Shown here one piece after another: positions 1 through 58,737 of a stretch of DNA of 64,000 nt (position 1 is the stretch's first letter; the number at the start of each line of letters is the position of its first letter). The notes beneath the pieces were generated by a model. The model worked only from the letters and a program-made list of their open reading frames with translations, did no database searches and was not told the origin of the DNA. Origin of the DNA: Candidatus Sungiibacteriota bacterium (GTDB lineage: Bacteria > Patescibacteriota > Minisyncoccia > Sungbacterales > HO2-52-23); contig JACPBG010000004.1 of the NCBI GenBank assembly GCA_016180435.1, forward strand, positions 134,151 through 198,150, given 5' to 3'. Made by a program: the position numbers and the translations under genes.

Positions 1-51
1 GGCCGCGGTATCGTTTTTGGGTTCCCGCAATTCTTCCTATATAACAGGACA

Positions 52-777
52 ATGCCTGCATATCAATGGGGGAGTTTTCATGTTATGAAGAAAAAAAATA
101 TAGACGCAATACTTTTGGCTGCCGGTAAAGGAGAAAGGGCCGGTGGGAATTATAAGCAGTTTGTGCACGTTCATCAAAAGCCATTAATTTTTTATTCTTT
201 GGAAAAGATTGTGAGAATATCTTGCTTACGGAATATTATAGTGGTAGTGCCTCTCCAAAAAATAAATTTTGCTAAAAAGATTATATATGAAAGATTTAAG
301 GATCCTCGGATTCATATAATTCCCGGGGGAGCCACTCGAAGGATATCTTCTTATATCGCTCTTTCATGCTCAGAAAAAAAAGGTAATACTGATTTCATAG
401 TTTTTCATGAAGCCGCGCGACCGCTTATCACCACTACGATGGTGTATTCTGTGATTAAAGAAGCAATGCGATGCGGAGCCGCCATTACTGGAATTCCGGC
501 CATTGATACGGTTGCGAAAGTTAAAGATATGTTTATAACGTCGATCCCGGATCGAAAAAAAATGTTTTATGTATATTTGCCCCAGTGTTTTAGGTTCTCG
601 TGGATTATCAAGGCGCATCGGGATAAAAAAAATAAAATTCTGGAATTGGAAAATGCTGAAAATACCGAACTGTTGGTGAATATGGGGAAAAGGATAAAAA
701 TCGTAAATTTTTATCCGAATTTTAAATTTACTTATTCACCCGACATAAAAGTTATATCCGCATTTTTTAAAAAATAA
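52..777 (+). CDS. IspD/TarI-like cytidylyltransferase (CDP-alcohol/sugar forming nucleotidyltransferase); probable true start at second Met (~85)
   Basis: N-terminal glycine-rich loop IDAILLAAGKGER typical of IspD/TarI/GT-A-like cytidylyltransferases; immediately upstream of TagF-like gene; G-rich RBS-like gggggag before second ATG. Confidence 0.55.
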   Translation: MPAYQWGSFHVMKKKNIDAILLAAGKGERAGGNYKQFVHVHQKPLIFYSLEKIVRISCLRNIIVVVPLQKINFAKKIIYERFKDPRIHIIPGGATRRISSYIALSCSEKKGNTDFIVFHEAARPLITTTMVYSVIKEAMRCGAAITGIPAIDTVAKVKDMFITSIPDRKKMFYVYLPQCFRFSWIIKAHRDKKNKILELENAENTELLVNMGKRIKIVNFYPNFKFTYSPDIKVISAFFKK

Positions 778-3042
778 ATGTTGCCCAGCGAATCTCTTAG
801 ACAAAAAAAATATGGGGAGAATCCAAATCCAAATGCAAAAGTCGGCTTCGTTATTTGTTATCCTTTTCAGTATTATGTTCAAAAAAATATCTATAAACAT
901 CTTAGGGATGAAGCGGAATTTATAATCGATGCCGGAGTTTATTTTCCCAATACTCAACCTCGGGCGTTAATTGACGATATTGTCGCGCTTCTTAGAAAAG
1001 AAAATGTATATTATCGGGTTCTTTACTATGATGATTATTTTTACAACCCAATTTTGGAAAGATTTTTTTTGAAATATAGAGTTCTGGTTTCTTTATGGGA
1101 ATGGGGATGCATGAAGTTTCGCTGCAATGATAATAAAAAAAGGATTCGCTTGGCTTATGGGGCTGGAAAAGAACTTACTCTGGTTCGTCCAACTGGAGCA
1201 AAATTTGACGTGTCCCTAGCGTATGGGAAACATGATGCGCGACTTCTTTCGCTTTTCTCTCATTGCGAAATCATTGGTAATCCAAAATTTGACGATTGGT
1301 TTAATGATAAGTGTGAAATACTACCGGACATTCAAAAAAGAGTAGATCCTAAAAAAAAGACGGTGCTTTATCTCCCGACTCATGGGGATTTATGTTCCAT
1401 TGATGAACTCCACCCGGAACTTAAAAAAATAGCCGGAACATATAATCTAATTGTTAAATTTCACTATCACACTATCCGTGACGAGCCAGAAAGAATTAAA
1501 AAAATGGAATCCGGTAGTATTATTCTTCTTAAAGATGACGTAGATTTACTGCCGCTGCTTAAACTTTCCGATGCTGTGATAAGCGACAATTCAAGCGCTA
1601 TATTTGATGCCATACTTGCTGATAAACCAATCGTGGTTACAGATTTTTTGGAAGATAAGTTTTTCACAGCAGAGCATCAAAAACTACGTTTAACAAGAAG
1701 AGGTATTACTGCTCCTCTTACTTTTCCGGGCAGTATTGAACAAGTAATAAAAAGAAAAAAACTCATACCAACGATTCAATCCCCCGGGGAATTAAAGGGA
1801 GTTATGTTGAACGCGCTTCAAGACAAGGATTTTTTCAAAAATGCGAGAAAAAAAATCAGGGAACATTTATTTGCGTATCGCGACGGTCAATGCGGTAGGC
1901 GCGGGGCAGAAGTAATCCAAAAAATTATGGATGGAAAATTATGTTTGCCTAAAAAAATTTTTTACTATATGTTGCCTCCGCCTACTCAGCTTGTAGAAAA
2001 TTTTTATAACGAATCTAAAAAAACCCGCGTACAGAATCACATTAAAATACATTTTCAATCCAAAGAAGAAGAAAAAAGGAATTTACTGCAATCCAATGTT
2101 AAAATTATAGACGGGATCATTTTTAGTATTATTTTGCCTTTATATGGTACAGCAAACCTTATACAAGCATCTATCAGATCGCTTTTGGCTCTTCGATTTC
2201 CTGCGCATAAATTTGAAATAATACTTATTAATTGTGGCGCCGGCAATATATCACTACCCGAGAATCATGCGGGAATAAAGGTAATTTTTTCCAAAGATAC
2301 AGCCGATACGATTTCTCAGGCCATAAAAATCGGTTTGTCGTATGCGACTGGAATTTATATTTGTTTGGGTCAGCCGCACTATTTTTATCATAGCGATTGG
2401 TTAAGGCATTTGTTTCGGGCCTATCAGGAGAATTTTTCTGTTGCCGGAGTGGGGGGATATGAGGCAGCTTCGAAAGAGTTGAAAAACTCATTTTCTGCGT
2501 ATTACGAAATGGAACTTAAGAGAAAAATGAACCTTCAGCGGGATCCCGTAGATTTTCCCACTAGGTTTTATCATGTAAAAAATAAACTTTTTTATCAAAA
2601 TCCGGCCGGAGTGCTTTCCAATATATCTTATCGGAGAGACATAATGTGTCAGTTTGACTTCTTAGCATTTTCTGCCACCCCGGAAGTCATGGAATTTGAA
2701 TTGAAACAAGCAGTATTAATGACCGGACGGCATCTTTATTTTAATGCGTTTCCGTGTTTTAGTTTGGAACGAATTGGTATCAAAAAATTTTTGCACAAAA
2801 ATTTTTGTGAAGGTATCGCGTTTTATACTATATTTTCAAGAGACCCATTTCTAAAACCCCATTACAAATATACTCCGTTTACTCTTTTTCGCATTTCATT
2901 AAATAATTTTTTTGACAGGCCGTTAGAGGTTAAACTTTTGGCTACAACTATTTTAGGAACTTTTGTAAGAATTTTTGGAACGTGTTATGCCGCGATTTTT
3001 TCATTTTCAGTGTTTATATTAAAGTTGCGCCGCGTGTCTTAG
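778..3042 (+). CDS. Fusion: TagF/TagB-like CDP-glycerol glycerophosphotransferase domain + C-terminal GT2-like glycosyltransferase domain
   Basis: VLYLPTHGD...KFHYH...LSDAVISDNSSAIFDAILADKPIVV matches Glyphos_transf signature (LYAPTWR / SD-ITDYSS / KPII); C-terminal FSIILPLYG...EIILINCGAGN resembles GT2 N-terminus; very AT-rich. Confidence 0.6.
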   Translation: MLPSESLRQKKYGENPNPNAKVGFVICYPFQYYVQKNIYKHLRDEAEFIIDAGVYFPNTQPRALIDDIVALLRKENVYYRVLYYDDYFYNPILERFFLKYRVLVSLWEWGCMKFRCNDNKKRIRLAYGAGKELTLVRPTGAKFDVSLAYGKHDARLLSLFSHCEIIGNPKFDDWFNDKCEILPDIQKRVDPKKKTVLYLPTHGDLCSIDELHPELKKIAGTYNLIVKFHYHTIRDEPERIKKMESGSIILLKDDVDLLPLLKLSDAVISDNSSAIFDAILADKPIVVTDFLEDKFFTAEHQKLRLTRRGITAPLTFPGSIEQVIKRKKLIPTIQSPGELKGVMLNALQDKDFFKNARKKIREHLFAYRDGQCGRRGAEVIQKIMDGKLCLPKKIFYYMLPPPTQLVENFYNESKKTRVQNHIKIHFQSKEEEKRNLLQSNVKIIDGIIFSIILPLYGTANLIQASIRSLLALRFPAHKFEIILINCGAGNISLPENHAGIKVIFSKDTADTISQAIKIGLSYATGIYICLGQPHYFYHSDWLRHLFRAYQENFSVAGVGGYEAASKELKNSFSAYYEMELKRKMNLQRDPVDFPTRFYHVKNKLFYQNPAGVLSNISYRRDIMCQFDFLAFSATPEVMEFELKQAVLMTGRHLYFNAFPCFSLERIGIKKFLHKNFCEGIAFYTIFSRDPFLKPHYKYTPFTLFRISLNNFFDRPLEVKLLATTILGTFVRIFGTCYAAIFSFSVFILKLRRVS

Positions 3043-3229
3043 TGGCTGTTTTTATAGCAGAAAGGCGTGATATTCCGGTTGTGGACAAAACCTCTTTATC
3101 TATTTTTGGTTTATTGATATAGTTGTTTTGTGGTAAAAAACACCTGACAATTAACGATTTGGCCGTAATGGTTAAAAGGGGCTTTGACGGCGTGGATAAG
3201 CGTTTTGAACAGGTTTAGGATCATAATTT

Positions 3230-3490
3230 ATGACTCTAGAAAACAAAAAACGATATTTGGGACTGCTTGCCGCCTTTTTAGGAATTGGTTTGTTAAAGTT
3301 ATATTCGCCGACTGTGGATACGCCGCTTTCTTCCGATGGCGTTTCTGCCGAAAATTGTTCATTCAAGGTTGCTGAGAACGTAAAGAATCAGAACGGATGC
3401 GATATTTTTAACCAAACCGACGTGGATATTATGATGCAGCAAGATAATGGCGGCGAAGTGCTTTTCGCCGGTTGCGGAGGATTTTTTTAG
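3230..3490 (+). CDS. Small secreted hypothetical protein (signal peptide LGLLAAFLGIGLL)
   Basis: 86-aa ORF with hydrophobic N-terminal segment after K/R n-region; followed by conserved hairpin ttgcgga-ggattttttt-agtccgcaa. Confidence 0.3.
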   Translation: MTLENKKRYLGLLAAFLGIGLLKLYSPTVDTPLSSDGVSAENCSFKVAENVKNQNGCDIFNQTDVDIMMQQDNGGEVLFAGCGGFF

Positions 3491-3582
3491 TCCGCAACGC
3501 GCATCGGATGTTCTCGAAAAGCTAAGTTTCCCATGGAAAACTTAGCTTTTTAGGTACGCGGCTGATTGGTTTTTATATTTTT

Positions 3583-3864
3583 TTGTGTTACCATGTCCGT
3601 ATGACTCCCCAGAGTTTTATAAAAAAAAGGCCATATCTGGTGTGGCATACCAGAAATTTTGACCACCTTTCTGAATCAGCAATTATAGAGGCGGTTTTAA
3701 ATTACGGCGACTTTGACGATGTTAAAAAACTGATTGCGATTTTGGGTATTAAAAAAGCCGCGGCAATTTTCCAAAAGCGCGCGTGGCAAAGAAGAAGCAA
3801 TTATCGTCCGGAAATAAGAAATTATTTTAAGCTTTACTTCAAAAAATATGCCCCGCATGCATAA
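3583..3864 (+). CDS. Hypothetical small protein overlapping start of AbiEii remnant (possible degraded AbiEi-like partner)
   Basis: 93-aa ORF whose stop overlaps the next ORF start, the arrangement typical of AbiEi-AbiEii operons; no recognisable motif. Confidence 0.2.
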   Translation: MCYHVRMTPQSFIKKRPYLVWHTRNFDHLSESAIIEAVLNYGDFDDVKKLIAILGIKKAAAIFQKRAWQRRSNYRPEIRNYFKLYFKKYAPHA

Positions 3865-4473
3865 GGAGATTTTAACTAAAGAGCAGGTTGAATTGTTGCC
3901 CTTACTCCAGAAATTTTCTAAAAATTTCTTTTTGGTGGGTGGCACGGCCATGGCTTTGCATATCGGACACAGACGGTCGGTTGATTTTGACCTTTTTTCT
4001 CACGAGGCATTTAGCATTGCCGGCATAAAAAGAAAAATTTTATAGGCGAACAGAATTGAAACAATTTTGGTAAATAAATCGGGGGAATTTACTATAACCA
4101 TCCAAGGCGTGCGAATGACCTTTTTTACTATCCGTTTCGTACTGTTACACCCAGGACTGTTTTTAACGATATTATAAAGATGCCGGATATTTTGACTTTG
4201 GCCGCCATGAAAGCGCACGCCCTGGGCCAGAGAGCCAAATGGAAGGACTATGTGGATCTTTATTTTGTGATGAAGAAATATCATGGACTGGATGAAGTTG
4301 TAAAAAGGGCGAAACGTCTTTTCGCCTCCGAATTCAATGAAAAAATATTCCGCGTTCAGCTGGCCTATTTTAAAGACATTGATTACACCGAAAAAATTAT
4401 TTATTTGAGGGGCTTTGAAACCAAAGACGAAGTTATCAAGAAGGGGCTAATTGAATTCAGTTTACATTTATAG
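3848..4473 (+). pseudogene. Frameshifted AbiEii/AbiGii-family nucleotidyltransferase toxin remnant
   Basis: ORF 3848-4045 carries LVGGTAMALHIGHRRSVDFDLFS (GGTAL + R-S-D-x-D nucleotidyltransferase motif of AbiEii); ORF 4180-4473 in a different frame carries the C-terminal KDYVDLYFVM motif; the ~130-bp gap implies at least one frameshift. Confidence 0.45.
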
Positions 4474-4699
4474 AGTACCCGATTCGCCTTGTGTCGGGCG
4501 CGAATATTTATCCAGCATTAAGAATTTAACGGGGCGAAGACGCGCTTTTTTCCGGATGCGGGGGATTTTTTTAGTCCGCAACGCACACGTAACTGTTTTT
4601 AAAGAAACCGGGTTTCCGTTGCGGAAACTCGGTTTCTGGTTGGGGCGCTTGACGAGACGCCATTTTTTTATTATCAATGAATAAAGGATCCTTTAAAAT

Positions 4700-6310
4700 T
4701 TGGGGGTAAATTTGATGAAAGGCGCAGAATTGATCGTAAAAACTCTTGAACGATATAGTGTATCGCATATTTTTGGCTTACCTGGAGATGCAACTTCTTT
4801 TTTTCGTGCGTTGACGAAAAGTCCAATTCAATTTATTACCATGAGAAATGAGCAGGGTGTGGGGTATGCAATAAATGGCTATGCGCGCGTAGCGAAGAAG
4901 CCCGGTGTTGCATATGTATCGCGTGGAGCCGGAGGAACAAATGTTTTAACCGGCATTGCTTGTGCATATTTAGAAGGAACTCCCGCTATCTTTATTACTG
5001 ATCAGGTAAGTCGCAAAGAAAGCATTTATCCTGATTCCTATATGTTCATAAATCTTGAAGATATATATAGACCCGTTTCAAAAGGCGTTGATGTGGTTTG
5101 GCGCGCTCAAGATATACCAGATATTATGTCTAGAGCTTGGGCGGATGCAAAAAGAAAAACTCCGGGTCCGCGCTGTATAATAGTACCGCAAGATGTATTC
5201 AATGAAGACACTGATCCGATTTATTTGGATCCGGTGGTATCTGAAGATGTGGAAATAGATTCCTTGGGGGCGGTGGAGCGGTTGCAGTATCATCTTGAGA
5301 AGAGCGGGTATCCGATTTTAATTTTCGGGCCTGGCATTAAAGAGTTTGTGAGGTCAGAAGAGCTGAAATCCTTTTTGGACCGTATTTCTGTGCCGTTTTT
5401 TACCACTCGTCATGCCAAGGGAATTATTTATGAAACCCACCCACTTCATTATGGCGTGGCTAGAAACGATATTCTTTCTGCTCTATCCCCTCAAATTGAT
5501 TTGGTAATCACTTTAGGGTACAACATAAGCGATAAAGACGATGAATATTCTTGGTGGTTGGATCGGACTAAAATTGAGCACATAGATATTTCAGATTCCC
5601 CCCCGATTGAGACCCTGTGTTTCCAGCCTGCGGAAAAATTTCGTGTGGATTGGAAAGATTTTTTTCAGCTTGCTCAGGAAAAACTGCCAGTTCGTTCACA
5701 TCCAACATTATTTAGGTTGTCGTCGCAGGAATGGCAAGAACGCTGCCGTAGAATGACTTTGGACAGATTTGGCGATTTTCTGCTCGGCGATGTTTTAAAC
5801 CAAAATAATTTAGGTGCTATTCTCACTTCAGACGATATAATAACGGTGGAAACGGGCCTTACCCGGCGTTATATACTCACGGTTTTTAAATCGTGCGGAC
5901 CGCACATAATTGGATCCGGAACCCTAAGTGCACTGGGATTTTCTGTCCCAGCTGCAATCGGCGCATCGATTGCCGATCCCAATGCAAGGGTTGTGGTAAT
6001 TTGCGGGGACGGGGCGCTCCTTATGAACGTTTCTGAACTTGCAACCATTCGCCGCTTAAAATTGCCGGTAAAGATTATTGTGGTAGCTGACGGATCATAT
6101 GGTTACATGAAATATCTTCAGTATGAAGCATTTGGTAGTTGTGTCGGAGTTGATTTCACTAATCCCGATTTTGAATTGCTGGCTCGTGCGTTCGGATTCG
6201 AGTATTTAGGCGTCCACCAGGAAACAGAGCTGGAATTAGTTCGTTCGCTAATCGAAGATCGGAATAATCCGGCGCTCATTGTGCTCTATCAAAAATATCA
6301 ATATAAGTAA
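4700..6310 (+). CDS. Thiamine-diphosphate-dependent enzyme, acetolactate synthase / pyruvate oxidase family (large subunit-like)
   Basis: 536 aa; N-terminal Pyr domain (GLPGDA...GYARVAKKPGVAYVSRGAGGTNVLTGIACAYLEGTPAIFITDQ) and C-terminal TPP-binding motif GDGALLMNVSELATIRRLKLPVKIIVVADGSYG (GDG-x24-N). Confidence 0.75.
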   Translation: MGVNLMKGAELIVKTLERYSVSHIFGLPGDATSFFRALTKSPIQFITMRNEQGVGYAINGYARVAKKPGVAYVSRGAGGTNVLTGIACAYLEGTPAIFITDQVSRKESIYPDSYMFINLEDIYRPVSKGVDVVWRAQDIPDIMSRAWADAKRKTPGPRCIIVPQDVFNEDTDPIYLDPVVSEDVEIDSLGAVERLQYHLEKSGYPILIFGPGIKEFVRSEELKSFLDRISVPFFTTRHAKGIIYETHPLHYGVARNDILSALSPQIDLVITLGYNISDKDDEYSWWLDRTKIEHIDISDSPPIETLCFQPAEKFRVDWKDFFQLAQEKLPVRSHPTLFRLSSQEWQERCRRMTLDRFGDFLLGDVLNQNNLGAILTSDDIITVETGLTRRYILTVFKSCGPHIIGSGTLSALGFSVPAAIGASIADPNARVVVICGDGALLMNVSELATIRRLKLPVKIIVVADGSYGYMKYLQYEAFGSCVGVDFTNPDFELLARAFGFEYLGVHQETELELVRSLIEDRNNPALIVLYQKYQYK

Positions 6311-6385
6311 TTAGAGATATTAAACAACGCACTTATTCCGGTGCGTTTTTATATTCCTTGCATAAAATGAAAAATAAATTATAAT

Positions 6386-7666
6386 ATGTATATGTCAATC
6401 AGTTTAAATTCACAGACAAAAAAGGCGTTAGTAGAAATTCTAAAATTTTCTTTAGAAAATCCTTATAGCGATTTTTATCGCCGAAAATATGCTCCACTAA
6501 AATTAAAGCATATTAACGAAGATAATATTGGAAATATTTTTGTATCTCTGCCGCTACTTACGAAGGATGATCTTTTGGCCTCACCTCCATTTGATCGCAT
6601 CTTTACAAAGATTCATTCTCCATATGTGATATCTAGCACTTCGGGTACAACCGGAAAGGGACCTGTGATCATATTTATAAATACACCAAGTGAAACAGCT
6701 GAAGGGCAATTGACTTGGGGAAAAATTAATGCCCAATGCGGATTATTTTTATTTCCACCCGGTGTGCAATGGCAATTGTTAACGACTATGATCCGCGCAT
6801 TCCCGGTTTATATCGGAAATCCGTATCAAATGAAAGAAACCGCCGAGATCGCATCACGAATAAAAATTGATACAATTGCTACAACTCCGACGGCATTGCA
6901 GCATTTTTTAATTTTTTTAGAACCAGCTTACGATATTTCAAAAATTAAGCACATTTTATTTAGGGGTGAGCCCTTGAGTAAAGCCCAGCAAACTTTTTTT
7001 AGAAATAAATTCCCCAATGCGATATTTAATTTGCTTTACGGGATGAGAGAAGCTGGACAGATTGGGGTTCAGTGCGATGTTTTGTCTATGCGTGAAGAAC
7101 CAATCTATCACCTTCGTTCAGATAAATTTTTTATAGAGATCTTGCCGGCTGAAAATGAGGAGGCGGGAGAATTAGTTCTAACCCACTTGCGAAAAGATCC
7201 TACGCTCCTGATACGCTATAGAACCGGGGATCTTGGTTGGTTTCTTCGGGATGAGAAATGTTCGTGCGAATTAAATTTTCCGCTATTTAAACTTTTTGGC
7301 AGAAATAGGCGAGAAACAATACATGCAGGCGGAGTTGTATTTGAAGCGGAAACTTTCAACGTCATTTTGAAAGACTTTTTGGAAAACATTCAAAATAATT
7401 TTGAAGCTCATTTCTATCAACGTTTAATCCAGGACAAAATTCAGTACGACATAGTTGTGCGGGTAATACCTAAGGGATCCGTTAATGAAATGTTAAAAAT
7501 CCGGCTGGAAGAATCCTTAAATAATCGTCTCCGTATATCAAATAGATTTTCTTTTTCCGAGCTTATACGTCAAGACCTATTTTCGCCAATTAAAGTTGAA
7601 TTTGCCGATCCTGATACCCAAATCTATAAAATGCCATTGTTATATAAATTGGTTTCGCATTTTTAA
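6386..7666 (+). CDS. PaaK/CapK/F390-synthetase-like adenylate-forming enzyme
   Basis: N-terminal DFYRRKYA motif, P-loop ISSTSGTTGKGPVIIF (SSGTTGKP-like), IRYRTGD motif; ~426 aa as in phenylacetate-CoA ligase family. Confidence 0.6.
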   Translation: MYMSISLNSQTKKALVEILKFSLENPYSDFYRRKYAPLKLKHINEDNIGNIFVSLPLLTKDDLLASPPFDRIFTKIHSPYVISSTSGTTGKGPVIIFINTPSETAEGQLTWGKINAQCGLFLFPPGVQWQLLTTMIRAFPVYIGNPYQMKETAEIASRIKIDTIATTPTALQHFLIFLEPAYDISKIKHILFRGEPLSKAQQTFFRNKFPNAIFNLLYGMREAGQIGVQCDVLSMREEPIYHLRSDKFFIEILPAENEEAGELVLTHLRKDPTLLIRYRTGDLGWFLRDEKCSCELNFPLFKLFGRNRRETIHAGGVVFEAETFNVILKDFLENIQNNFEAHFYQRLIQDKIQYDIVVRVIPKGSVNEMLKIRLEESLNNRLRISNRFSFSELIRQDLFSPIKVEFADPDTQIYKMPLLYKLVSHF

Positions 7667-7667
7667 G

Positions 7668-9020
7668 ATGCTTCACTCAAAAATCAAGCCTCAAGATTTT
7701 AGAAAATTGCTGCGTTTTGTTTGGCGAAGCCCCAGATCCGACTTTTACCGCAATCTGTATAAAAAGGCGGGCTTCAACCCCGTTTTAGATTTTACATCCC
7801 CGGCGGATTTGACTAAAGTCCCATTTTTAACCAGAAGCGATCTGGGATCGGTCAAGCCCAAAAAAAGGCTTTATGTCCCATTGAAAGATGTGGATTATAT
7901 AAAAGTTTCTAGCGGATTTAGTGGAGAAAAAAAAGATCTGTTGGTAACATACTGCTGTCATTATCGTTCAAAACCATTAAATAAGGATTTAGCGATTGAT
8001 TCCATTCCCCCGCATCTTAAAAAAATTTTTTATTTGCGCCGAGCGGAACACGTGCCCATATTTTTTTCGAGAGCAAGAGATCTGGGAAGACTGGCGATTT
8101 TCGGCAATCGCTCTGATCCGGAGTGGTCGGCAAAAGTTTTATCCGAGGTAGAGGCCCAAGCGCTTTTGGCCGTACCGACGGAGGCGGTTTTATTTGCCAA
8201 TTACATTAAAAAATATTACGACCCGCGAAAAATCAAATTAGTTATAGTTTACGGAGAACCCGTAACCAGAATGCAGCATCGAGAATTATTGCGTCTGTAT
8301 CCCGAAGCAAGCGTCCGCTCGCTGTACGGCATGGCGGTGTTTAACAGGCCGGTTGGGATACAATGCGATCATTTGGCAAAAATAGCGCCCAATCTTTATC
8401 ACTCGGTCCCGGGATATTTTTATGAGACAAAGGTGGTCGGAAAAAATGGTTTTTTAAGAAAGGAGCTCGTCTTAACAGATTTTGAGAAAGCCGCTACGCC
8501 ATTTATTCGTTACCGGACAGGTGATGCCGCAAAATTCATAAACAGCAATTATAAATGCCGTTGTGGAAAAATTGGGTTAATTTTTGTTTTCTTGGGCAGA
8601 GTTGTGATGGATGCCATTCAATGTACAAATCAGTTTATGATACGGGCGCGAGACGTGCAATACACACTTTCCAAAAATAAAATTCAATATAGGGGATTTC
8701 GTTTGGAAGTAGATGAAAAAAAATACGGACATAGCCCGCGTTCCATACTAAAGTTAATGCTTTTTGTAAAAATATATCCGTCACGAGTTCTTCAGATCAA
8801 TATTTATAAAATATTGAAAAAATCCCTTTATTTTAATGTGAGATATAAGCTTAGCGATGGTTCGCCGAGACTTGCAGATCTTCTACGCAGACGTGAAATT
8901 TTAAATTTTCAGATTAATTTCAAAAAAATATCGGATAAAGAAAATCCACAGTGTGAATTAGTTGACATGCGCGTTTATCACGCCCTGCCGCGCAACTTTT
9001 TGTCCAAATTGACAAAATAA
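7668..9020 (+). CDS. PaaK/CapK-like adenylate-forming enzyme paralog with degenerate phosphate-binding loop
   Basis: SDFYRNLYKKAGF N-terminal motif, IRYRTGD motif conserved, but the P-loop position reads KVSSGFSGEKKD; start placed at Met right after the upstream stop. Confidence 0.5.
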   Translation: MLHSKIKPQDFRKLLRFVWRSPRSDFYRNLYKKAGFNPVLDFTSPADLTKVPFLTRSDLGSVKPKKRLYVPLKDVDYIKVSSGFSGEKKDLLVTYCCHYRSKPLNKDLAIDSIPPHLKKIFYLRRAEHVPIFFSRARDLGRLAIFGNRSDPEWSAKVLSEVEAQALLAVPTEAVLFANYIKKYYDPRKIKLVIVYGEPVTRMQHRELLRLYPEASVRSLYGMAVFNRPVGIQCDHLAKIAPNLYHSVPGYFYETKVVGKNGFLRKELVLTDFEKAATPFIRYRTGDAAKFINSNYKCRCGKIGLIFVFLGRVVMDAIQCTNQFMIRARDVQYTLSKNKIQYRGFRLEVDEKKYGHSPRSILKLMLFVKIYPSRVLQINIYKILKKSLYFNVRYKLSDGSPRLADLLRRREILNFQINFKKISDKENPQCELVDMRVYHALPRNFLSKLTK

Positions 9021-9087
9021 ACTATTTAATATATAATGTTTAATATTGGTCTTTCCCAACCAATAAATAAAATCTTAAGGAGGTTAT

Positions 9088-9702
9088 ATGAAGGGAAAAA
9101 GCGTTTTTTGGTGGGCTGTGTTGTTAGTGTGTTTATTCGTTGGGGTCGCTTCGGCCCAGGTCGACGCGCCCCAGTATAAAGAGGGTGATGCGTGGAAGAT
9201 AAAGTATAAAAGGGGGGGGGCGATTTCGAAGTCGAACGTGCTTCTTTCCGGAATTTATGATGTGGTTTATCGCAATGGCGAGTTTGTATGGTGTCCATCG
9301 CAGGACGACAAATCGATCGATAACAAACTGTGTGCTGATCCATGGACGGGATTGCTGGCCGAAGCGCTTTTTTTCGTGGGGGATTATGGTAAAGATAATC
9401 CACCTTTTTTTAGTTTTCCGATTAAGGTTGGTGATAAGCCCAGGGGTTATGAATATTTTAACCCAAATGCCGGGCGTAGTGGCATGAATTCAAACGGCAC
9501 CATCGCCGTTACGGATGTCAGCACCAAAACAAAAGCGGGTGAGTACAACGCGTATAAACACTCATTAAGTGAGAGCGGGGGTCGCACGATCCGGACATAT
9601 TACTATGTGTCAGAGTGTAAATGTGTATTGGAGTTTTCGGCTGAACTTGGGAGCGGAACAACTTACTCCGGGGAAGTTCTAGATTTTAAAGTCGCAAAGT
9701 AA
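9088..9702 (+). CDS. Secreted hypothetical protein
   Basis: Strong RBS aaggagg 7 nt upstream; signal peptide MKGKSVFWWAVLLVCLFVGVASAQ; the overlapping minus ORF 9026-9403 is judged spurious. Confidence 0.5.
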   Translation: MKGKSVFWWAVLLVCLFVGVASAQVDAPQYKEGDAWKIKYKRGGAISKSNVLLSGIYDVVYRNGEFVWCPSQDDKSIDNKLCADPWTGLLAEALFFVGDYGKDNPPFFSFPIKVGDKPRGYEYFNPNAGRSGMNSNGTIAVTDVSTKTKAGEYNAYKHSLSESGGRTIRTYYYVSECKCVLEFSAELGSGTTYSGEVLDFKVAK

Positions 9703-9753
9703 AACCCCGAACAAACAAAAGGATGGATATCATAAGGCATCGCTCGCGGTGCC

Positions 9754-11163
9754 TTATTTTTTTGCTCCAGTATAAATTTCTTTAAATAGAGGGGGTAGTT
9801 TATTCAAATCCAAAATTTTCTCATAATTCAATTTTTTAAGCAGATCCGAATAAGTAATATAGCCAGATTTAGTGTCAAAAGTCTGTCTAAGAAGAAATTG
9901 CGGCGTTTCGGAAACGCGCCATATGGCTGGTGAAAATGTTCCAAAATAGAGCGAATAGGAGCTGCGAGCGGTTAGAAGGTAGAATGGTGACTGCGTATTT
10001 TTAATAGCGGTGGGGTAATAGATTGTAAACCAGCCGAATGCGAGAGTATTTTGGATAAGATATGGCAGTGTGGCTAATTTTTCGTTTTTTACCACCCCAT
10101 TTTTTATCAAAAATTGATTATAAAGATCGGTTAAATAGCGCAGATCGGTACAAAGATAATCATTCGTTTCAAAATGTGGCCAAACTTTGATTCCATGTTG
10201 AAGCCCGAATTTTGCTTCGAGTTGATCAGGCATGACAGAGTAGTCGCGATAGTATTTTTGATTTGTTAGCTTGGCCTTAAGCCAGAAATTTTTATATGTA
10301 AATGGCATTTTTTTAATATAGAAAGGATGTTTTATCGGTAAATTATTTTCCCGGCCAAAACATGGGGTTTCGGCCCAATACGGGCCGAATACTTTATCCT
10401 CGGGTTTAATTCCTAAAATTTCATTGGGGAGTGGTTCAAAAGGTATGTGTTCAGACAGGGATCCGATCCCTGTATTTACAGGGATCGGATCCCTGTTTTC
10501 TGTCAGACACCGGCCATAATATAAACATTGTTTGCGTTGCGCAATTTCTTCCGCTAATTTCAGGGCATTTTTTTGAATTAGCCGGAAATCATTATATACG
10601 ATTTCCGGGGTGGTGCCGGAGCCCAGAAATATGATTTTGGTTTTTGGTACTTTGGGATTTGCCCGGAAGATATTTTCCATGGCCTGAATATGCAGATCAA
10701 TCGCTTTTTTGTATGATGCGGCGGATTTTTCATGCCAATCCAGCAAAATTAAAGCACCTTCGCGCGACGGAGCATCAAGAAATTTCTTGGTAGCCACGTG
10801 AATATAAGGGAGGGTTGCCAAAAATTCATCCGGCCACAGCCGCCATTCTTCGGGAAATACATCGCGGTATTTCGGGTCTCCGTTGGGGCGAAACATACGA
10901 TCCACATAGAGAATCAAATCGTCTTGGTGTTTCATCTCGGCCACGGATTCCTGCAGGAATCCGGCATCCATAGCCGGATCGTAAAAAAGCGGATCGGACG
11001 CGGTAAGTTCGCGGAATTTTTCAAGATTTTCGTCCATGATTATAGCTGGTTTTGGATAAACCAAAGTTATCGCAACCAGCGCCCCGGCCCATATAACAAA
11101 AATCCCCGCAGTCAATTGGAGCGGCGTGGACAATATTTTTTTATGCCAGTGAAATTTTAACAT
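9754..11163 (-). CDS. Membrane-anchored hypothetical protein, paralog A of a pair (possibly glycosyltransferase-like; family unassigned)
   Basis: N-terminal TM (LTAGIFVIWAGALVAITLV); C-terminal block SLYFGTFSPAIWRVSETPQFL paralogous to SLYFLPFNRSVWRLPQSPNFL in the adjacent gene; contains an in-frame 40-bp perfect hairpin. Confidence 0.4.
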   Translation of the reverse strand: MLKFHWHKKILSTPLQLTAGIFVIWAGALVAITLVYPKPAIIMDENLEKFRELTASDPLFYDPAMDAGFLQESVAEMKHQDDLILYVDRMFRPNGDPKYRDVFPEEWRLWPDEFLATLPYIHVATKKFLDAPSREGALILLDWHEKSAASYKKAIDLHIQAMENIFRANPKVPKTKIIFLGSGTTPEIVYNDFRLIQKNALKLAEEIAQRKQCLYYGRCLTENRDPIPVNTGIGSLSEHIPFEPLPNEILGIKPEDKVFGPYWAETPCFGRENNLPIKHPFYIKKMPFTYKNFWLKAKLTNQKYYRDYSVMPDQLEAKFGLQHGIKVWPHFETNDYLCTDLRYLTDLYNQFLIKNGVVKNEKLATLPYLIQNTLAFGWFTIYYPTAIKNTQSPFYLLTARSSYSLYFGTFSPAIWRVSETPQFLLRQTFDTKSGYITYSDLLKKLNYEKILDLNKLPPLFKEIYTGAKK

Positions 11164-11171
11164 GTGTTCTG

Positions 11172-12476
11172 TCAGCGGGTTGTAATGTAATCTTTGTGGC
11201 GGAATTCTGCGCCGCGCGCTATTTCTGCAATTTCGCCTCCCGAAAGATTGTCGGCGATTTCAGCAAAATTTTTAAAATGTGAAATCGTATTAATCTTTGT
11301 GCCTAAAAAATTTGGGCTCTGCGGCAATCTCCACACACTGCGGTTGAACGGCAAAAAATATAGAGAGGGGCACCCCCGGGTGATGTAAAGATATGATAAA
11401 GGAGGAAGTTTGCTCTCCTGCGCCATATAGCGCGACATGGTTGTATATTGCCGGATTCCATCCGCGCCTGTTTCAAGAATTAAGTCCAGCATGCTGGATT
11501 TTTGATTCATCACCGAATTTTTAGGTAGGTGCGGCCTTCTCCATGTCAGATCGCATATTGTGGCCAGGTCAGCATAATAGCTAAGATCAAATGACGCGTA
11601 CCAGGCTGTGGGGGGTTGCAGCCAATAATGAATATTTCTGCGCTGAAGCGGTTGGTATGGAGTTTTATCGTAAGATGATGTTTTTTTATTCTCATCAATA
11701 TCAAGGTAATAATATTGGTCTGTTATTTTAAGGTCAAATTTTCCCGTTCTTTCGGAGTTAAGTATATAGGCGAAAAATTGATGAGTTTTGGGAGACACAT
11801 CAAAATTCGGAAGGGTATAAAAAATAGGGCCATATCGTTCTTTGATTGACCTATTTTTTTCCAGTATTTCAAGTATTTTTTTATTTCTTGCGGATGGTTC
11901 CGGGCCCGAAACTATTTGTGGAATAAAATCTTGTGCGGTCTGTAGTGAATCCGATAAATTAAAATTTCCTGCAAGGATATCGTGGCGCCTATCTATATCT
12001 TTTAACAATTCTTTTGAATTTTCTTTGAATTTGTCAAAAATATCCAATATCTCCTGAAAAGTAATGACTCGATGGAAAAATTGAAAGGAAGCGTGTGAGG
12101 AGAGTTTTTCGGCCTTTTGCGCGGTCCGCAGGGCTTCGCCACATCCTTCTAAACCGTTTATATATGCTTTTAGGGTTTTTCCATGTTGGGTTAAAAGTTT
12201 TTGGGCGTTTTCTCTCGTAGAATTTGAGGAAAATTCTTGGCGTATTTGTTCCGCCGCCACGAATTCTTTAAGAAATATAAGCGGATGGAGCGTTTGGTGA
12301 AAGGGATACCAAAATGAAAACCAGCGATAGGATGGCCGCCATACGTCTTCAAGTTTTTTTAACTCTTGTTCAAGTTCGTCAACCGCCCATCTGGCGTTAT
12401 TTACATCCATTCCCTCGGCGGCAAAAAGAGGGTCGTTTAAGGTTATTTCCAAGAATTTTTTGAGGTTATCAGGCAT
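11172..12476 (-). CDS. Hypothetical protein, paralog B of the pair (GT-like?)
   Basis: Shares DPLF N-terminal motif and the conserved C-terminal block with 9754-11163; same strand and operon. Confidence 0.4.
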   Translation of the reverse strand: MPDNLKKFLEITLNDPLFAAEGMDVNNARWAVDELEQELKKLEDVWRPSYRWFSFWYPFHQTLHPLIFLKEFVAAEQIRQEFSSNSTRENAQKLLTQHGKTLKAYINGLEGCGEALRTAQKAEKLSSHASFQFFHRVITFQEILDIFDKFKENSKELLKDIDRRHDILAGNFNLSDSLQTAQDFIPQIVSGPEPSARNKKILEILEKNRSIKERYGPIFYTLPNFDVSPKTHQFFAYILNSERTGKFDLKITDQYYYLDIDENKKTSSYDKTPYQPLQRRNIHYWLQPPTAWYASFDLSYYADLATICDLTWRRPHLPKNSVMNQKSSMLDLILETGADGIRQYTTMSRYMAQESKLPPLSYLYITRGCPSLYFLPFNRSVWRLPQSPNFLGTKINTISHFKNFAEIADNLSGGEIAEIARGAEFRHKDYITTR

Positions 12477-13311
12477 TGGTTTTTTTGATTACCCATGCTT
12501 TCCGCGCCAAAATAATTAAACGGCGGGAATCAAAGCGATACGGCGATCCGTCATAATATCCCCACACCCTTTTGATTTTTAATCCGCTTTCTTCCAGCAT
12601 ACGGCGAAATTCGGGAAGGGAAAATAATCTTATGCGCAATTGAAGATTTTTTTGTTTTCTCCGTTCTTTCCATGAATATGTGATCGTCCAATGCATGGTC
12701 AGCGGGTCTATTTCTTTTTTTATGACAAGCCGCTTTCCGTTTTTGAGCGTTTCGTTTTGAAACATTGAAACGATGTTGTTTTTTCCTGTGGAAGCGCCAT
12801 TTTGGTAAAATTGAAAAAATACTTGTGAAAGATTATTGAGATCAATTAGTAAAAATCCTTTGGGTTTCAGGGCGCGTGAAATCTTCCGAAGCACTAGGAG
12901 ATTATCGCTTTCTTCCGCGAAATATCCGAAAGAAGTATACATATTGATAATAAGATTAAAGCGCTTTTTGAATGATAGGGTGCGCATGTCTTTTTTGCTG
13001 AATTGCACTTTTTGTTTTTGTTTTTTAGACGTTTCGCGCGCAATTTTCAAAAAATATTCGGAAGTGTCAATTCCGGTTACGTTAAATTCGTGTTTGGCAA
13101 GAGCGATGGCGTGCGTGCCGTATCCGCATGCCAAATCCAAAATCTCCGCACTTTTCGTAAGGCCTATTTTTCCCGTCAGTTTAAGTAAAAAAGAAATTTC
13201 GCGTTTTGTTCGCGCCTTACTTACAAAATATGAATCGGCAGTCAGGTAATCCTTATTGAAGGCGGTTTTCCACCATTCTTTTTTCTGTTTTACCCCATTA
13301 GAGAGAAACAT
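12469..13311 (-). CDS. Class I SAM-dependent methyltransferase
   Basis: Motif I ILDLACGYGTHAIALA followed by acidic loop NVTGIDTSE. Confidence 0.7.
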   Translation of the reverse strand: MFLSNGVKQKKEWWKTAFNKDYLTADSYFVSKARTKREISFLLKLTGKIGLTKSAEILDLACGYGTHAIALAKHEFNVTGIDTSEYFLKIARETSKKQKQKVQFSKKDMRTLSFKKRFNLIINMYTSFGYFAEESDNLLVLRKISRALKPKGFLLIDLNNLSQVFFQFYQNGASTGKNNIVSMFQNETLKNGKRLVIKKEIDPLTMHWTITYSWKERRKQKNLQLRIRLFSLPEFRRMLEESGLKIKRVWGYYDGSPYRFDSRRLIILARKAWVIKKTNA

Positions 13312-13548
13312 AAGACCTTTTGCACAATAAGCTTTCGTGACGAAATTTTAGAATTTTAGGCGAAAATCGTGAAGGACGAGGAGGCCTATATGGCATATAT
13401 AAGTCGACGAGTCCTGAACGATTTGCAGCCAAAATTATGAAATTGCAGTAGAAATGTTATTGTGCAAGAGGTCTATAGATTGTTTTTGCCGTATAAGAAT
13501 ACTTGTGATATCGGCCATGGGCAATTCGATGTGTATAAATTAAGCGGA

Positions 13549-14388
13549 TTAAATTTTAAGCGACGCCTTTGGGCATAAACAGCGCGGAGAAATTTTTTCA
13601 AAATAAATATGGCTGCGGTAGCGGAGCATGGGGCAGGCCTTAAGGCGGGTGGTGGTAATTATTGAAAGCGCCGATGGCTCAATATACACATCATCCGCCG
13701 GATGGAAGATAAGATCCTTTTGGACGATTGATTCCGGGCAGGCATGCGCAATGCTTCCGATCTCCGGAATGCTCAACGTAAAATTAAGTTTTATTTTCTC
13801 CGGCCACTCCAAGTCCTCTTGGGAAAACGTATCATCAATCACGGTAACGCTTTTTAACGCAGGCAGGATTTCCAACAGTTTTTCACGAAAGGCGCGGATC
13901 GCGGCGCGGTCCATGAAAATCGTGTCAACCTCGTATTGGCGGGCCGTGGCGTAAATCACCGCCGGGTTGTGAAATTCGCCGATCAAAGGCAGGACATTTT
14001 GCTCGTAGAAATAAAGACAGCGTTCAATTGCCTCATAAACATTTTCAAAAATTACCATGGGGCGCGTCCCGTCATACGGTAGTTGTTCTTGCCGGATTTC
14101 CTCCAAGGTCCGGTGGATTAAAAAGTATTGGTCCGCTTCGTTGGAAAAGATTAGTTTATTTAAGCCCGGTTTCTCGCCGTAGCATCTTGAGTCGTACGGA
14201 GCATATGCAAGTTCTTGTTTGGTAAGTATGGGGAAGGAGTTCCAATTGGATTCGTTTAAAGTATCAAGCCGTGTTACGTCAATTCCGGCAGACGCGTATT
14301 TTTTACGGTAAAAATCCGGTTTCGCGGCCAAAACCAACCCGATAAGTTCTTTGATTTTTTGTAAAAATTCCGCGTCCATTGCCGCCAT
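13549..14388 (-). CDS. PaaK/CapK-like N-terminal domain protein lacking the P-loop (third paralog, possibly non-catalytic)
   Basis: PDFYRKKYASAGIDVTRLDTLNESNWNSFPILTKQELAY matches the PaaK N-terminal signature; no SSGTTG loop; 279 aa. Confidence 0.4.
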   Translation of the reverse strand: MAAMDAEFLQKIKELIGLVLAAKPDFYRKKYASAGIDVTRLDTLNESNWNSFPILTKQELAYAPYDSRCYGEKPGLNKLIFSNEADQYFLIHRTLEEIRQEQLPYDGTRPMVIFENVYEAIERCLYFYEQNVLPLIGEFHNPAVIYATARQYEVDTIFMDRAAIRAFREKLLEILPALKSVTVIDDTFSQEDLEWPEKIKLNFTLSIPEIGSIAHACPESIVQKDLIFHPADDVYIEPSALSIITTTRLKACPMLRYRSHIYFEKISPRCLCPKASLKI

Positions 14389-20875: not shown

Positions 20876-21104
20876 GTGAGCAACTACTACCCACATTTGA
20901 TGAATCGCATTTTTATCAGCGATTCGCGTAAATCGGCTAAAATTCGCAGAAATTCGTTCGGGTAGGTGGGCGATCTTTAACACCACGTTTGGGATCCCGC
21001 AAGGTGCGGGAATAAAATTTTGGACGGCAATGGTTGTTTTACGGGCATGTTACTTCCGGCCCAATCGGAAAACGGAAGCAAAAACCGAAACCTTAGGGGG
21101 GTTT

Positions 21105-22235: not shown

Positions 22236-22270
22236 TCGCCACTGTTACAACGCCACGAAAGGAGGCATTT

Positions 22271-22305
22271 AAAAGCCCAGTACGGAAATCCGTACTGGGT
22301 TATTA
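22271..22305 (+). terminator. Hairpin terminator
   Basis: cccagtacggaaatccgtactggg followed by T-rich tract. Confidence 0.45.
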
Positions 22306-22377
22306 TAATTTAGGCGTTATCCCATTTGTCCGGAGATATATCTGCTTGTTTTATAATTTCTGCGATTAAGTTTTTAT

Positions 22378-22614
22378 CTATATCACGGCCGTGGGGATTA
22401 TACCGATATGCAAACCCGGAATAGAATCGCCATCTCTTAGTTTTAATAGTAGCCAATCTTCAAGAGCGGATTGCAATTCTTTCCGACAATCTTCTAAATT
22501 TTTGGCGTGGGCCCATACTCCTTGCAATCCCGGAATTTCACCCAAATAACTCTTATTTTTTAGAAGCTTATATCTGGCTTCTCTTAGTTTTTTTTCCACA
22601 AATTCAGAAATCAT
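22378..22614 (-). CDS. HicB-like (UPF0150) antitoxin-family protein, orphan
   Basis: YLGEIPGLQGVWAHAKNLEDCRKELQSALEDWLLLKL matches HicB/UPF0150 core (G-IP-LPG-...-TLEE-...-L-E-L); no HicA ORF found adjacent. Confidence 0.5.
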   Translation of the reverse strand: MISEFVEKKLREARYKLLKNKSYLGEIPGLQGVWAHAKNLEDCRKELQSALEDWLLLKLRDGDSIPGLHIGIIPTAVI

Positions 22615-22742
22615 ATTTTTATGTTACATATCTGATATGGTTGTGTAAATCTTTACTTTTTATTCAAAATAGTGTATAATATAAGATATGGATTTGCAGT
22701 AGTTAATTCTAAGGTTTAAGTTTAAATTATAGCTCAATTTTT

Positions 22743-25112: not shown

Positions 25113-25313
25113 AACAGAGGCCGTTGAATTATTCTTCGAGCGGAGCAAAGCGGAGTCGAGAAGCTTCTTTTTAAGGTAGTTTATCCTGAGTTTGTCGAAG
25201 GAAAGGATAACTTTTGGCTTATGTATCCTCTCGATAAGCTCGGGGAATAATTCAACGGTATCAAACATTAAGTGAGTGTTGCAAAAGTATAATTATGGTT
25301 TATTATTATCTAT

Positions 25314-28208: not shown

Positions 28209-28259
28209 AATTATAACTAATAACTACAAACTACAAACTAAAAACTATTAACTAATTTT

Positions 28260-58725: not shown

Positions 58726-58737
58726 TTTGTGAGTAGT

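Follow-up and report, generated by a model that had tools for sequence, protein, structure and literature searches.

A small C-x-G-Φ-Φ peptide gene, PaaK-like proteins and a new protein family form a conserved gene module in Patescibacteria

Here, we present an analysis of the stretch from 52 to 14388 in a 64-kb window (the whole piece of DNA analyzed, to which all coordinates refer) of a metagenome-assembled Candidatus Sungbacteria genome. An initial annotation had described this stretch as a cell-envelope polymer locus, in which three PaaK/CapK-like adenylate-forming paralogs and a thiamine diphosphate (ThDP) enzyme were suggested to decorate a glycerol-phosphate polymer. We distinguish two units: unit 1, which extends from 5' of the window to 3042 and carries teichoic acid-type genes, and unit 2, from 3230 to 14388, which appears to be one copy of a module that occurs throughout Patescibacteria (Candidate Phyla Radiation, CPR). 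The proposed constant core of this module consists of a small secreted or signal-anchored peptide, PaaKA as the intact PaaK-like enzyme, its one or two degenerate paralogs with a PaaK fold, and the proteins X434 and X469. The peptide open reading frame (ORF) is an element that the initial annotation did not contain. The module is a previously undescribed gene set that is widely conserved in Patescibacteria; literature searches on PaaK-like enzymes in ribosomally synthesized and posttranslationally modified peptides (RiPPs), on RiPPs of the CPR, and on the motif strings found no description of it. Altogether, we consider it reasonably probable that unit 2 is an ATP-dependent, RiPP-like peptide maturation module.

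Results

A peptide with a conserved C-terminus lies beside the PaaK-like genes

The core features of unit 2 are the following.

3230 to 3490, plus strand: candidate precursor peptide of 86 aa with a basic/hydrophobic signal-like N-terminus, a polar linker and the end EVLFAGCGGFF before the stop codon
4530 to 4574, plus strand: 3' remnant (relic) of another copy of the peptide gene, ending in EDALFSGCGGFF before the stop codon, from a six-frame regular-expression scan
6386 to 7666, plus strand: PaaKA, a PaaK-like adenylate-forming enzyme that is catalytically intact by its motifs (AMP-binding, 4.7e-10; PDB PaaK, 7e-12)
7668 to 9020, plus strand: PaaKB, a full-length, partly degenerate PaaK-like paralog (PDB 4r1l, 3e-11)
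9754 to 11163, minus strand: X469 (469 aa), membrane anchored and probably extracytoplasmic, of the DPLFYDP type with four conserved Cys
11172 to 12476, minus strand: X434, predicted cytoplasmic, of the DPLFAAEG type, without a transmembrane helix and without conserved Cys
13549 to 14388, minus strand: tPaaK, a pseudo-enzyme that consists of the PaaK large domain only and lacks the P-loop, the A7 Asp, the hinge and the C-terminal domain

The starting clue to the peptide family was an ORF of ~70 aa that ends in FLFVDCTGFFE and is common to five loci. Using a six-frame scan for ORFs ending in C-x-G-Φ-Φ-(x)-stop, we found a peptide ORF in all 15 Patescibacteria lineages (15/15) in which sequence adjoining an intact PaaK-like gene is present on the contig. 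In most cases, the peptide gene directly adjoins the gene for the intact PaaK-like enzyme, with a gap of 0 to 18 nt; in the window, only a decayed toxin–antitoxin insert and the second-copy relic lie between the peptide gene and the genes for the ThDP enzyme and PaaKA. The gene at 3230 to 3490 is also called as a gene in Logan contigs. The conserved peptide end reads Φ-Φ-x-x-C-x-G-Φ-Φ-(E)-stop, with tails (related loci are referred to by L numbers) such as LFSGCGGFF in L009, YVAGCSGFF and FVECVGLF in L007, FVACVGFF and FVTCGGFLE in L003, YIGCGGLY in L004, and YSDCTGFFE in L005. The N-termini of the peptide ORFs carry basic residues and a hydrophobic stretch of 14 to 18 residues that resembles a signal peptide or anchor, and the L031 peptide has a cleavage-type site between AQA and A; the ORFs that lack a signal-like N-terminus are the relics at 4530 to 4574 in the window and at 11728 to 11826 in L007 and one short ORF in L003. 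The linker of the 86-aa peptide is rich in Ser, Thr and Asp.

When used as a prediction on loci fetched later, two of them belonging to distant members of the X family, the pattern was found next to the PaaK-like gene in four of four informative cases, with the tails FLFSDCTGFYE (L026), CYFTGCGGFF (L027), MYVVGCSGIL (L031) and MLVGCGALF (L032). As a background, the remaining 49 kb of the window yielded a single chance match of 40 aa or longer. We considered that CGGFF-stop might be a translated intrinsic terminator, i.e., a GC hairpin followed by a T-run, and rejected this explanation because the Phe, Cys, Gly, Thr and Asp codons of the motif vary synonymously between loci, and because TTC codons and a trailing Glu codon also occur. 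Between the window peptide and its L011 ortholog, the pN/pS ratio is 0.28. An NCBIfam search with five of the peptides returned nothing meaningful. Moreover, the two main tail types diversify together with their neighbors: tails of the DCTGFFE type accompany one PaaK clade and a symporter of the SSF family, while tails of the GC[GS]GFF type accompany the PaaKA clade and the ThDP enzyme. A small precursor ORF with a conserved core beside a modifying enzyme, recurring across lineages, is the organization by which RiPP clusters are recognized, and it is the organization found here.

The relic at 4530 to 4574 has the tail DALFSGCGGFF and is a direct repeat of the 3' end of the gene at 3230 to 3490. 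The toxin–antitoxin insert in the window is flanked by this direct repeat (at ~3478 to 3500 and ~4560 to 4582). Toxin–antitoxin cassettes adjoin peptide genes or relics in two lineages, i.e., the decayed AbiEii-type cassette in the window and a HepT/MNT cassette at 11796 to 12776 of L007 in Uhrbacteria.

At 10870 to 11175 of L032, an ORF of 101 aa with a Cys/Gly-rich tail containing GGCGCGGSCGGGGSCGSSCAGGCSCDGGCACAG is located near genes for radical S-adenosylmethionine (SAM)-SPASM proteins and an Asn-synthase-like protein and near the X, PaaK-like and peptide genes. This ORF may represent a second precursor type.

One intact PaaK-like enzyme is accompanied by degenerate paralogs

PaaKA (426 aa) is identical to an NCBI protein entry from Candidatus Sungbacteria. 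It contains TSGTTGK, YGMRE, YRTGD, the GR hinge and the C-terminal Lys, that is, the A3 P-loop, A5 Glu, A7 Asp, A8 hinge and A10 Lys of ANL enzymes. PaaKB shares 25% identity with PaaKA (E of 8e-25) and retains A7, including YRTGD, A8 and A10; its A3 motif is altered to SSGFSGEKK and the A5 Glu is lost (YGMAVF). The match of tPaaK to PaaK at the sequence level is confined to the N-terminal DFYRKKY…LTK segment; its AlphaFold2 model (predicted local distance difference test [pLDDT], 77.8) has PaaK structures as the top Foldseek matches (E of 2e-6; probability, 1.0). These data agree with the initial annotation, which had listed two plus-strand PaaK-like enzymes, the second with a degenerate P-loop and an intact YRTGD motif, and a third PaaK-like protein with only the N-terminal domain and without a P-loop; tPaaK indeed lacks both the P-loop and the C-terminal domain. 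The idea that tPaaK is a decaying gene was rejected based on the conservation among eleven homologs, which have a mean column identity of 66% and an invariant HRTLEEI at the P-loop site.

The combination of catalytic and noncatalytic paralogs, which the initial annotation had singled out as a triad, recurs. Based on a motif table, every related locus encodes an intact PaaK-like protein (A3, A5, A7, A8 and A10) together with one or two degenerate paralogs, and other lineages frequently have a third PaaK-like protein of ~330 aa without a P-loop. PaaKA and PaaKB score far below the NCBIfam models for PaaK proper (TIGR02155/NF041878), with 48 to 54 and 38 to 49 bits, respectively, against cutoffs of 646 to 700. 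The phenylacetate catabolism context of PaaK was not found, as there are no paa catabolic genes in the window or the related loci. NCBIfam similarities to the families of the DVU_1553 ligase and the DVU_1556 methyltransferase are weak and far below the family cutoffs, and we discarded them.

X469 and X434 define a new protein family

X469 and X434 are 25% identical (E of 7e-15). The initial annotation had described them as two paralogous, membrane-anchored, glycosyltransferase-like proteins. The paralogy is supported; however, only X469 has an N-terminal membrane helix, and neither protein matches a glycosyltransferase profile, nor does X469 adopt a GT-A, GT-B or GT-C fold by structural comparison. 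Pfam has no match to X469, X434 or 27 homologs (29 aligned members in total), and NCBIfam has none to X469 or X434. The AlphaFold2 model of X469 (pLDDT, 88.6; predicted TM-score, 0.85) has no fold match in the PDB at E < 1. X469 and X434 are, therefore, members of a new protein family without a Pfam model or a detected structural relative.

A profile search of 1.84 billion cluster representatives yielded 428 members of the X family. Among 162 diverse members, 116 have both the transmembrane anchor and the four conserved Cys, while 19 lack both traits and correspond to the cytoplasmic DPLFAAEG subtype; the subtype traits are conserved in orthologs. Scans for relatives of the X proteins gave 2 loci in the genome collection and 15 loci in metagenomes. 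The homologs of X469 make up a small family that was found in metagenomes only, and every organism named by the sources belongs to a Patescibacteria lineage.

The core recurs across Patescibacteria with changing neighbors

Related loci were fetched through homologs of the X family and of the PaaK-like proteins and then searched with all window proteins using tblastn. X and PaaK-like genes are adjacent in every lineage, and they recur in at least 13 lineages other than that of the window; in most of these, neither a TagF gene nor a cytidylyltransferase gene lies within 10 kb. Twelve loci (L003, L005, L006, L010, L014, L015, L016, L018, L019, L027, L031 and L032) share only the PaaK-like and X genes with the window and lack TagF and cytidylyltransferase genes within this distance. 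Two gene orders recur: the tPaaK gene is usually convergent with and abuts an X469-type gene, and an X434-type gene is followed by a full-length PaaK-like gene. L003 and L004, which encode the nearest PaaKA homologs, at first seemed to have unrelated contexts; peptide and PaaK-like genes turned out to be present in both, together with X genes in L003. The sources assign the loci to Sungbacteria, Uhrbacteria, Kaiserbacteria, the Parcubacteria group, Microgenomates and a metagenome-assembled genome labeled Saccharibacteria.

In Uhrbacteria, almost all genes of the window set are found, in another order, at one locus (L007/L008/L012/L013, with L011 as its extension). Identities to the window proteins are 46% for the ThDP enzyme, 36% for the X434-type protein, 63% and 47% for two X469-type proteins, 84% for tPaaK, 66% for the methyltransferase and 37% for TagF. 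This locus also encodes two PaaK-like proteins, two sulfatase-like proteins, a separate family 2 glycosyltransferase (GT2) piece, a toxin–antitoxin cassette and a nucleotidyltransferase that belongs to PF00483, a family other than that of the window's IspD-type enzyme. Sungbacteria and Uhrbacteria are the only two lineages in which TagF and nucleotidyltransferase genes accompany the core.

In a comparison of the window with L011 (25 to 4335), the peptide (78%), tPaaK (84%) and the methyltransferase (66%) are more similar than the ThDP enzyme, X434 and TagF (36 to 46%). Because of this difference in sequence identity, we suggest that a part of the module may have been exchanged recently between the Sungbacteria and Uhrbacteria lineages.

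The remaining neighbors vary. The gene for the SSF symporter (PF00474) is present in seven lineages with DCTGF[FY]E tails and absent from L005 and L026, which have the same tail; similarly, among loci with GC[GS]GFF tails, the window, L007/L011 and L009 encode the ThDP enzyme, while L027 does not. Solute-binding proteins are encoded in L003 (two TctC and one DctP), and other ones in L009, L011 and L032. Other neighbors are genes for methyltransferases, an FAD monooxygenase, an arylsulfotransferase, and sulfatase-like, Asn-synthase-like and radical SAM-SPASM proteins. In about half of the lineages, the module has glycan genes at its flanks, i.e., TagF–GT2 in the window and Uhrbacteria; several GT2 genes and WecG in L006, L014, L015 and L019; and Wzy_C, Bac_transf and WecG in L026. 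No glycosyltransferase gene is located nearby in L003, L005, L010, L018, L031 and L032.

In L031 (11709 to 16135) from Kaiserbacteria, genes for an arylsulfotransferase and an Lnt-like apolipoprotein N-acyltransferase (LNT_N plus CN_hydrolase) flank the group of X, PaaK-like and peptide genes.

Accompanying genes in unit 2

Three further genes accompany the core in the window.

4700 to 6310, plus strand: ThDP enzyme of the acetolactate synthase (ALS) family in a clade of its own, with TPP_enzyme_N, M and C domains (PDB ALS, ~1e-47)
9088 to 9702, plus strand: 204-aa secreted protein with a signal peptide-like N-terminus and no Pfam match, conserved in loci of the ThDP type
12469 to 13311, minus strand: class I SAM-dependent methyltransferase (Methyltransf_25, 3e-19), overlapping X434 by 8 nt

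The ThDP enzyme has all three domains of the family to which it had been assigned and possesses the catalytic Glu. It is not an acetolactate synthase equivalog, its best NCBIfam score being 280 bits against a cutoff of 509; in addition, all four orthologs have GDG…AD instead of GDG…NN, and there is no ilv context around the gene. Orthologs with 46 to 53% identity are located within the same module in L007/L011 and L009. The methyltransferase, likewise predicted from the start, has an ortholog in L011 (66% identity) that adjoins the truncated PaaK-like gene. Homologs of the 204-aa protein are present in L021/L022 (46% identity); a 215-aa protein of L007 is an apparent counterpart by eye only, as BLASTP clustering did not join the two. 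PADLOC returned no match for eight proteins of the locus, and we therefore rejected a known defense system.

Unit 1 carries a putative CDP-alditol and TagF-type gene set

The genes of unit 1 that lie within the window are as follows.

1 to 88, plus strand: 3' end of a short-chain dehydrogenase/reductase (SDR) gene cut by the window start, with a sulfatase-family gene further 5'
52 to 777, plus strand: IspD/TarI-family cytidylyltransferase (Pfam IspD, 4e-34; the start given by the gene caller is 85)
778 to 3042, plus strand: fusion of a TagF-like phosphotransferase with a GT2 domain; a hydrophobic helix is present at the C-terminus

Based on Logan contigs of the same organism, the locus extends at least 1.9 kb 5' of the window start. 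The complete SDR has 259 aa (adh_short; L001, 1226 to 2005); 5' of it lies a gene for a sulfatase-like protein with more than 392 aa. In the Uhrbacteria orthologs of this protein, the nucleophile site reads T-A-P-S-F, with Thr in place of Cys or Ser. All public contigs of the organism (L001, L029 and L030) share their end base at position 1, which is within the sulfatase-like gene and 1.9 kb before the window; this common contig end suggests a repeat or a strain-variable junction at that point.

The cytidylyltransferase had been recognized in the initial annotation, and its IspD match agrees with that assignment. Its best PDB relatives are TarI ribitol-5-phosphate cytidylyltransferases (4jis, 1.3e-23; 6xhp), and its score against the NCBIfam ribitol-5-phosphate cytidylyltransferase subfamily is 124 bits, below the cutoff of 166. 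Because the enzyme is of the TarI/IspD type and is preceded by an SDR gene, its product points to a CDP-alditol such as CDP-ribitol, not to CDP-glycerol, and the glycerol-phosphate backbone proposed originally finds little support. The TagF–GT2 fusion was likewise correctly predicted, with PF04464 Glyphos_transf at aa 165 to 375 (48.1 bits; cutoff, 22.1) and PF00535 Glycos_transf_2 at aa 450 to 574 (34.4 bits); in Uhrbacteria, the two parts are separate adjoining genes. Two hallmarks of a wall teichoic acid locus are, thus, present, i.e., a cytidylyltransferase of the family that makes CDP-glycerol or CDP-ribitol and, by profile score, a predicted TagF/TarL-family phosphotransferase. When all ORFs of 150 aa or longer in the 64 kb were scanned with Pfam, no TagO, TagA, TagB, TagGH or LCP protein was detected. 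We propose that unit 1, comprising the sulfatase-family protein with its predicted Thr nucleophile, the SDR, the TarI/IspD-like cytidylyltransferase and TagF–GT2, would synthesize a CDP-alditol and serve to transfer units of alditol-phosphate and sugar.

Composition and layout of the region

The ORFs between 1 and 14388 agree with those listed in the initial annotation. The GC content of 52 to 14388 is 39.9% (computed), compared with 46.0% for the remaining window, and is the minimum among all 14.3-kb windows. The AT richness noted initially is, therefore, real, and the region is a genuine AT-rich envelope gene island of the Candidatus Sungbacteria genome; the estimate of ~35% GC, however, was too low. 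Per gene, the GC content ranges from 36% (cytidylyltransferase, TagF–GT2 and PaaKA) to 46% (tPaaK, with 279 aa, and the 204-aa gene), so that the latter two are at the genome level. The following features concern the layout.

3515 to 3553, plus strand: terminator-like hairpin followed by a T-run, 3' of the peptide gene (RNA fold, −22.6 kcal/mol; z = −2.9)
3583 to 4473, plus strand: decayed toxin–antitoxin cassette with an antitoxin-like small ORF and fragmented ORFs of an AbiEii-type toxin
9009 to 9037, plus strand: sigma-70-type promoter consensus (TTGACA, 17 nt, TATAAT; 12/12 match; a consensus match only)
9732 to 9757, no strand assigned: terminator-like hairpin with an 11-bp stem and a T-run at the point where the strands converge

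The cassette was identified from a weak precomputed AbiEii match and a weak DUF6922 match. The description of the locus as two convergent operons was too simple: the plus strand is interrupted from 3043 to 4699 by the small peptide gene, hairpins and the decayed AbiEii cassette; a further terminator-like hairpin is located 3' of the ThDP gene; and the promoter consensus overlaps the 3' end of the PaaKB gene, 5' of the gene for the 204-aa secreted protein at 9088.

Elsewhere in the window, a second low-GC patch (57979 to 59963, minus strand; 31 to 36% GC) encodes an Exo_endo_phos protein, a CarS-like protein of the CDP-archaeol synthase family (PF01864, 7.6e-25) and a CDP-alcohol phosphatidyltransferase. 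Thus, this CPR genome has a set of genes for lipid head groups whose composition is island-like. The segments from 21030 to 30881 and from 48209 to 53883 contain ORFs of 401, 631, 964, 297, 353, 445 and 1265 aa without any Pfam match.

Discussion

A proposed peptide maturation module in Patescibacteria

Starting from the observed gene identities, motif states, peptide family and conserved co-occurrence, we propose a working model for the substrate, the chemistry, the topology and the role of the X proteins in unit 2. A fixed core (the peptide, the PaaK-like proteins and the X pair) combined with changing tailoring and supply genes is the organization of a RiPP cluster, and this is why we compare the module to one. 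In the cytoplasm, PaaKA would adenylate a carboxylate with ATP, while the pseudo-enzymes and X434 may serve as scaffold or substrate recognition partners. The carboxylate is most likely the C-terminal one of the peptide itself, because the aromatic last residues resemble the arylacetate substrates of PaaK. The invariant Cys, located four to five residues upstream, would capture the activated acyl group to form a thiolactone, unless a different nucleophile does so; we favor thiolactone chemistry because the Cys–Gly–aromatic spacing is fixed at the extreme C-terminus. The peptide would then be exported via its signal-like N-terminus, and the membrane-anchored X469 may bind, process or transfer it outside the cell. 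Lineage-specific tailoring or supply could be the task of the ThDP enzyme, the methyltransferase, the secreted protein of 204 aa and, possibly, unit 1.

Several points weigh against this model. Adenylate-forming enzymes of the ANL superfamily are not known to act on ribosomal peptides. Where C-terminal activation is known from RiPPs, it is carried out by ThiF-like enzymes. The invariant residues of the X family are mostly aromatic and do not form a recognizable catalytic site. The C-terminal Glu of the CTGFFE type changes the ring size, which makes the fit to a thiolactone less neat. The loci were collected through X and PaaK-like homologs, and co-occurrence was thus measured from these two sides only. 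The uptake genes (SSF, TctC and DctP) and the ThDP enzyme fit the attachment of a small acid to the peptide better. Finally, glycan genes (GT2, WecG, TagF and Wzy_C) lie beside the module in about half of the lineages, which would allow a role on a glycopolymer and may reflect a looser tie of the module to envelope glycan genes.

The first alternative is that the intact PaaK-like enzyme adenylates a small acid and loads it, in a manner reminiscent of LuxE or an acyl carrier, on the invariant Cys as a thioester or on another residue of the peptide. The acid could be imported via the SSF symporter or the TctC/DctP proteins or be synthesized with help of the ThDP enzyme. Consistently, the putative carboxylate sources are mutually exclusive in our sample (SSF in seven loci; the ThDP enzyme in the window, L007/L011 and L009; TctC twice plus DctP in L003), solute-binding proteins are encoded in L009, L011 and L032, and a PaaK-like protein of L032 has a faint LuxE match in Pfam. 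Also, the shift of the Cys by one residue relative to the C-terminus matters less for S-acylation. However, SSF transporters carry many noncarboxylate solutes, and there is neither a thioesterase nor a downstream acyl acceptor; moreover, this reading gives no reason for the conservation of the two aromatic residues and of the Gly that follows the Cys. We regard the loading of a small acid, the second of the two chemistries that fit, as rather unlikely.

The model of the initial annotation, in which a teichoic-type alditol-phosphate polymer would receive acyl, aminoacyl or ketol groups from the three PaaK-like proteins and the ThDP enzyme, analogous to the Dlt system, keeps some weight because glycan neighbors recur: in Sungbacteria and Uhrbacteria, TagF, GT2, nucleotidyltransferase, sulfatase-like, ThDP, PaaK-like, X and methyltransferase genes occur together, and L006, L014, L015, L019 and L026 have other glycan flanks. 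Nevertheless, the support for it is weak. Most loci with PaaK-like and X genes lack nearby TagF and cytidylyltransferase genes; among the ORFs of the window scanned with Pfam, there is no carrier protein, MBOAT, TagO/A/B, TagGH or LCP; the nucleotidyltransferases of the two lineages are from different families (IspD versus PF00483); and the conserved peptide is unaccounted for. Therefore, we consider this model improbable. A third alternative, namely, that the peptide itself is an acceptor of GT2/TagF (by glycocin-like S- or O-glycosylation) or a protein anchor for a surface polymer that the PaaK/X core prepares or attaches, would suit the GT2-containing genes that adjoin the module in the window, L007/L008, L006, L014, L015 and L019, the incomplete teichoic acid pathway of the window and the Ser/Thr/Asp-rich linker, but it appears very unlikely given the six loci without a nearby glycosyltransferase (L003, L005, L010, L018, L031 and L032) and because, apart from the GT2 fold, no resemblance to the SunS/GccA glycocin systems is known to us.

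Returning to the peptide maturation module, we speculate that an intracellular PaaK-fold complex may make a tail thiolactone that stores the energy of ATP through export, and that the disulfide-containing X469-type protein may use the thioester outside the cell, in a setting that lacks ATP, either for ligation of the peptide to a surface glycopolymer, peptidoglycan or a host cell or for its release as a cyclic signal. We hold this extended scheme to be a long shot. If true, the chemistry would define a class of its own, new among ribosomal peptides, and the module would be a surface attachment or signaling system specific to the ultrasmall, episymbiotic Patescibacteria. Patescibacteria are abundant and mostly uncultured episymbionts whose surface and signaling molecules are almost unknown. 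The module is a concrete and testable candidate for a new peptide modification and gives a context to hundreds of proteins annotated as hypothetical. It also calls for caution, as PaaK/CapK-like genes beside TagF do not automatically encode polymer-decorating enzymes.

Comparison with known systems

Among RiPP-related pathways, mycofactocin resembles the module in its short peptide MftA, with the C-terminus IDGMCGVY (G-x-C-G-Φ-aromatic), and in the GT2 enzyme of the pathway. In contrast to that pathway, MftC, MftB and MftE are absent here, and the peptides have signal-like N-termini; a Radical_SAM domain is not encoded in the window locus and was found as a neighbor in L032 only. The Dlt system for D-alanylation similarly combines an ANL adenylating enzyme with a membrane-anchored extracytoplasmic partner beside teichoic-type genes; however, DltB (MBOAT), the DltC carrier and DltX are presumably absent here, and we take X469 to be unrelated to DltD. 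Unit 1 shares with the CDP-alditol modules of wall teichoic acid and capsule loci (TarI/TarJ, Bcs1 and TagF/TarL) the order of a reductase followed by IspD/TarI as well as PF04464, but it has an SDR instead of a TarJ-type dehydrogenase and a fused TagF–GT2, and the 64 kb contain no linkage unit, export or ligation genes.

The peptides are reminiscent of AgrD, a small exported peptide that is matured with AgrB, has a Cys four residues from the end of the ring segment and bulky hydrophobic last residues. Unlike in AgrD/AgrB, ring closure here would be driven by ATP on the free C-terminus rather than coupled to proteolysis, and the CTGFFE tail is one residue longer; no AgrB peptidase family of Pfam was detected, either at the window locus or in the genes called for the related loci. 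RiPP clusters with ATP-dependent C-terminal activation (ThiF-like, MccB and thiolactone-forming) likewise have a precursor-like ORF beside a carboxylate-activating enzyme and variable tailoring genes. Here, the activating enzyme has a PaaK fold and is not E1/ThiF-like, no RiPP recognition element domain was detected, and the N-terminus of the peptide is less like a typical leader than like a signal or anchor of the Sec type. Finally, PaaKA and PaaKB share the fold and domain order of the ANL enzymes of the PaaK, LuxE, F390 synthetase and CapK type, with PaaK structures as the best matches. They differ from PaaK in having ~25% identity and no paa context and in their occurrence as sets of one intact enzyme and one or two pseudo-enzymes, one of which is truncated at the hinge, always together with X proteins and the peptide.

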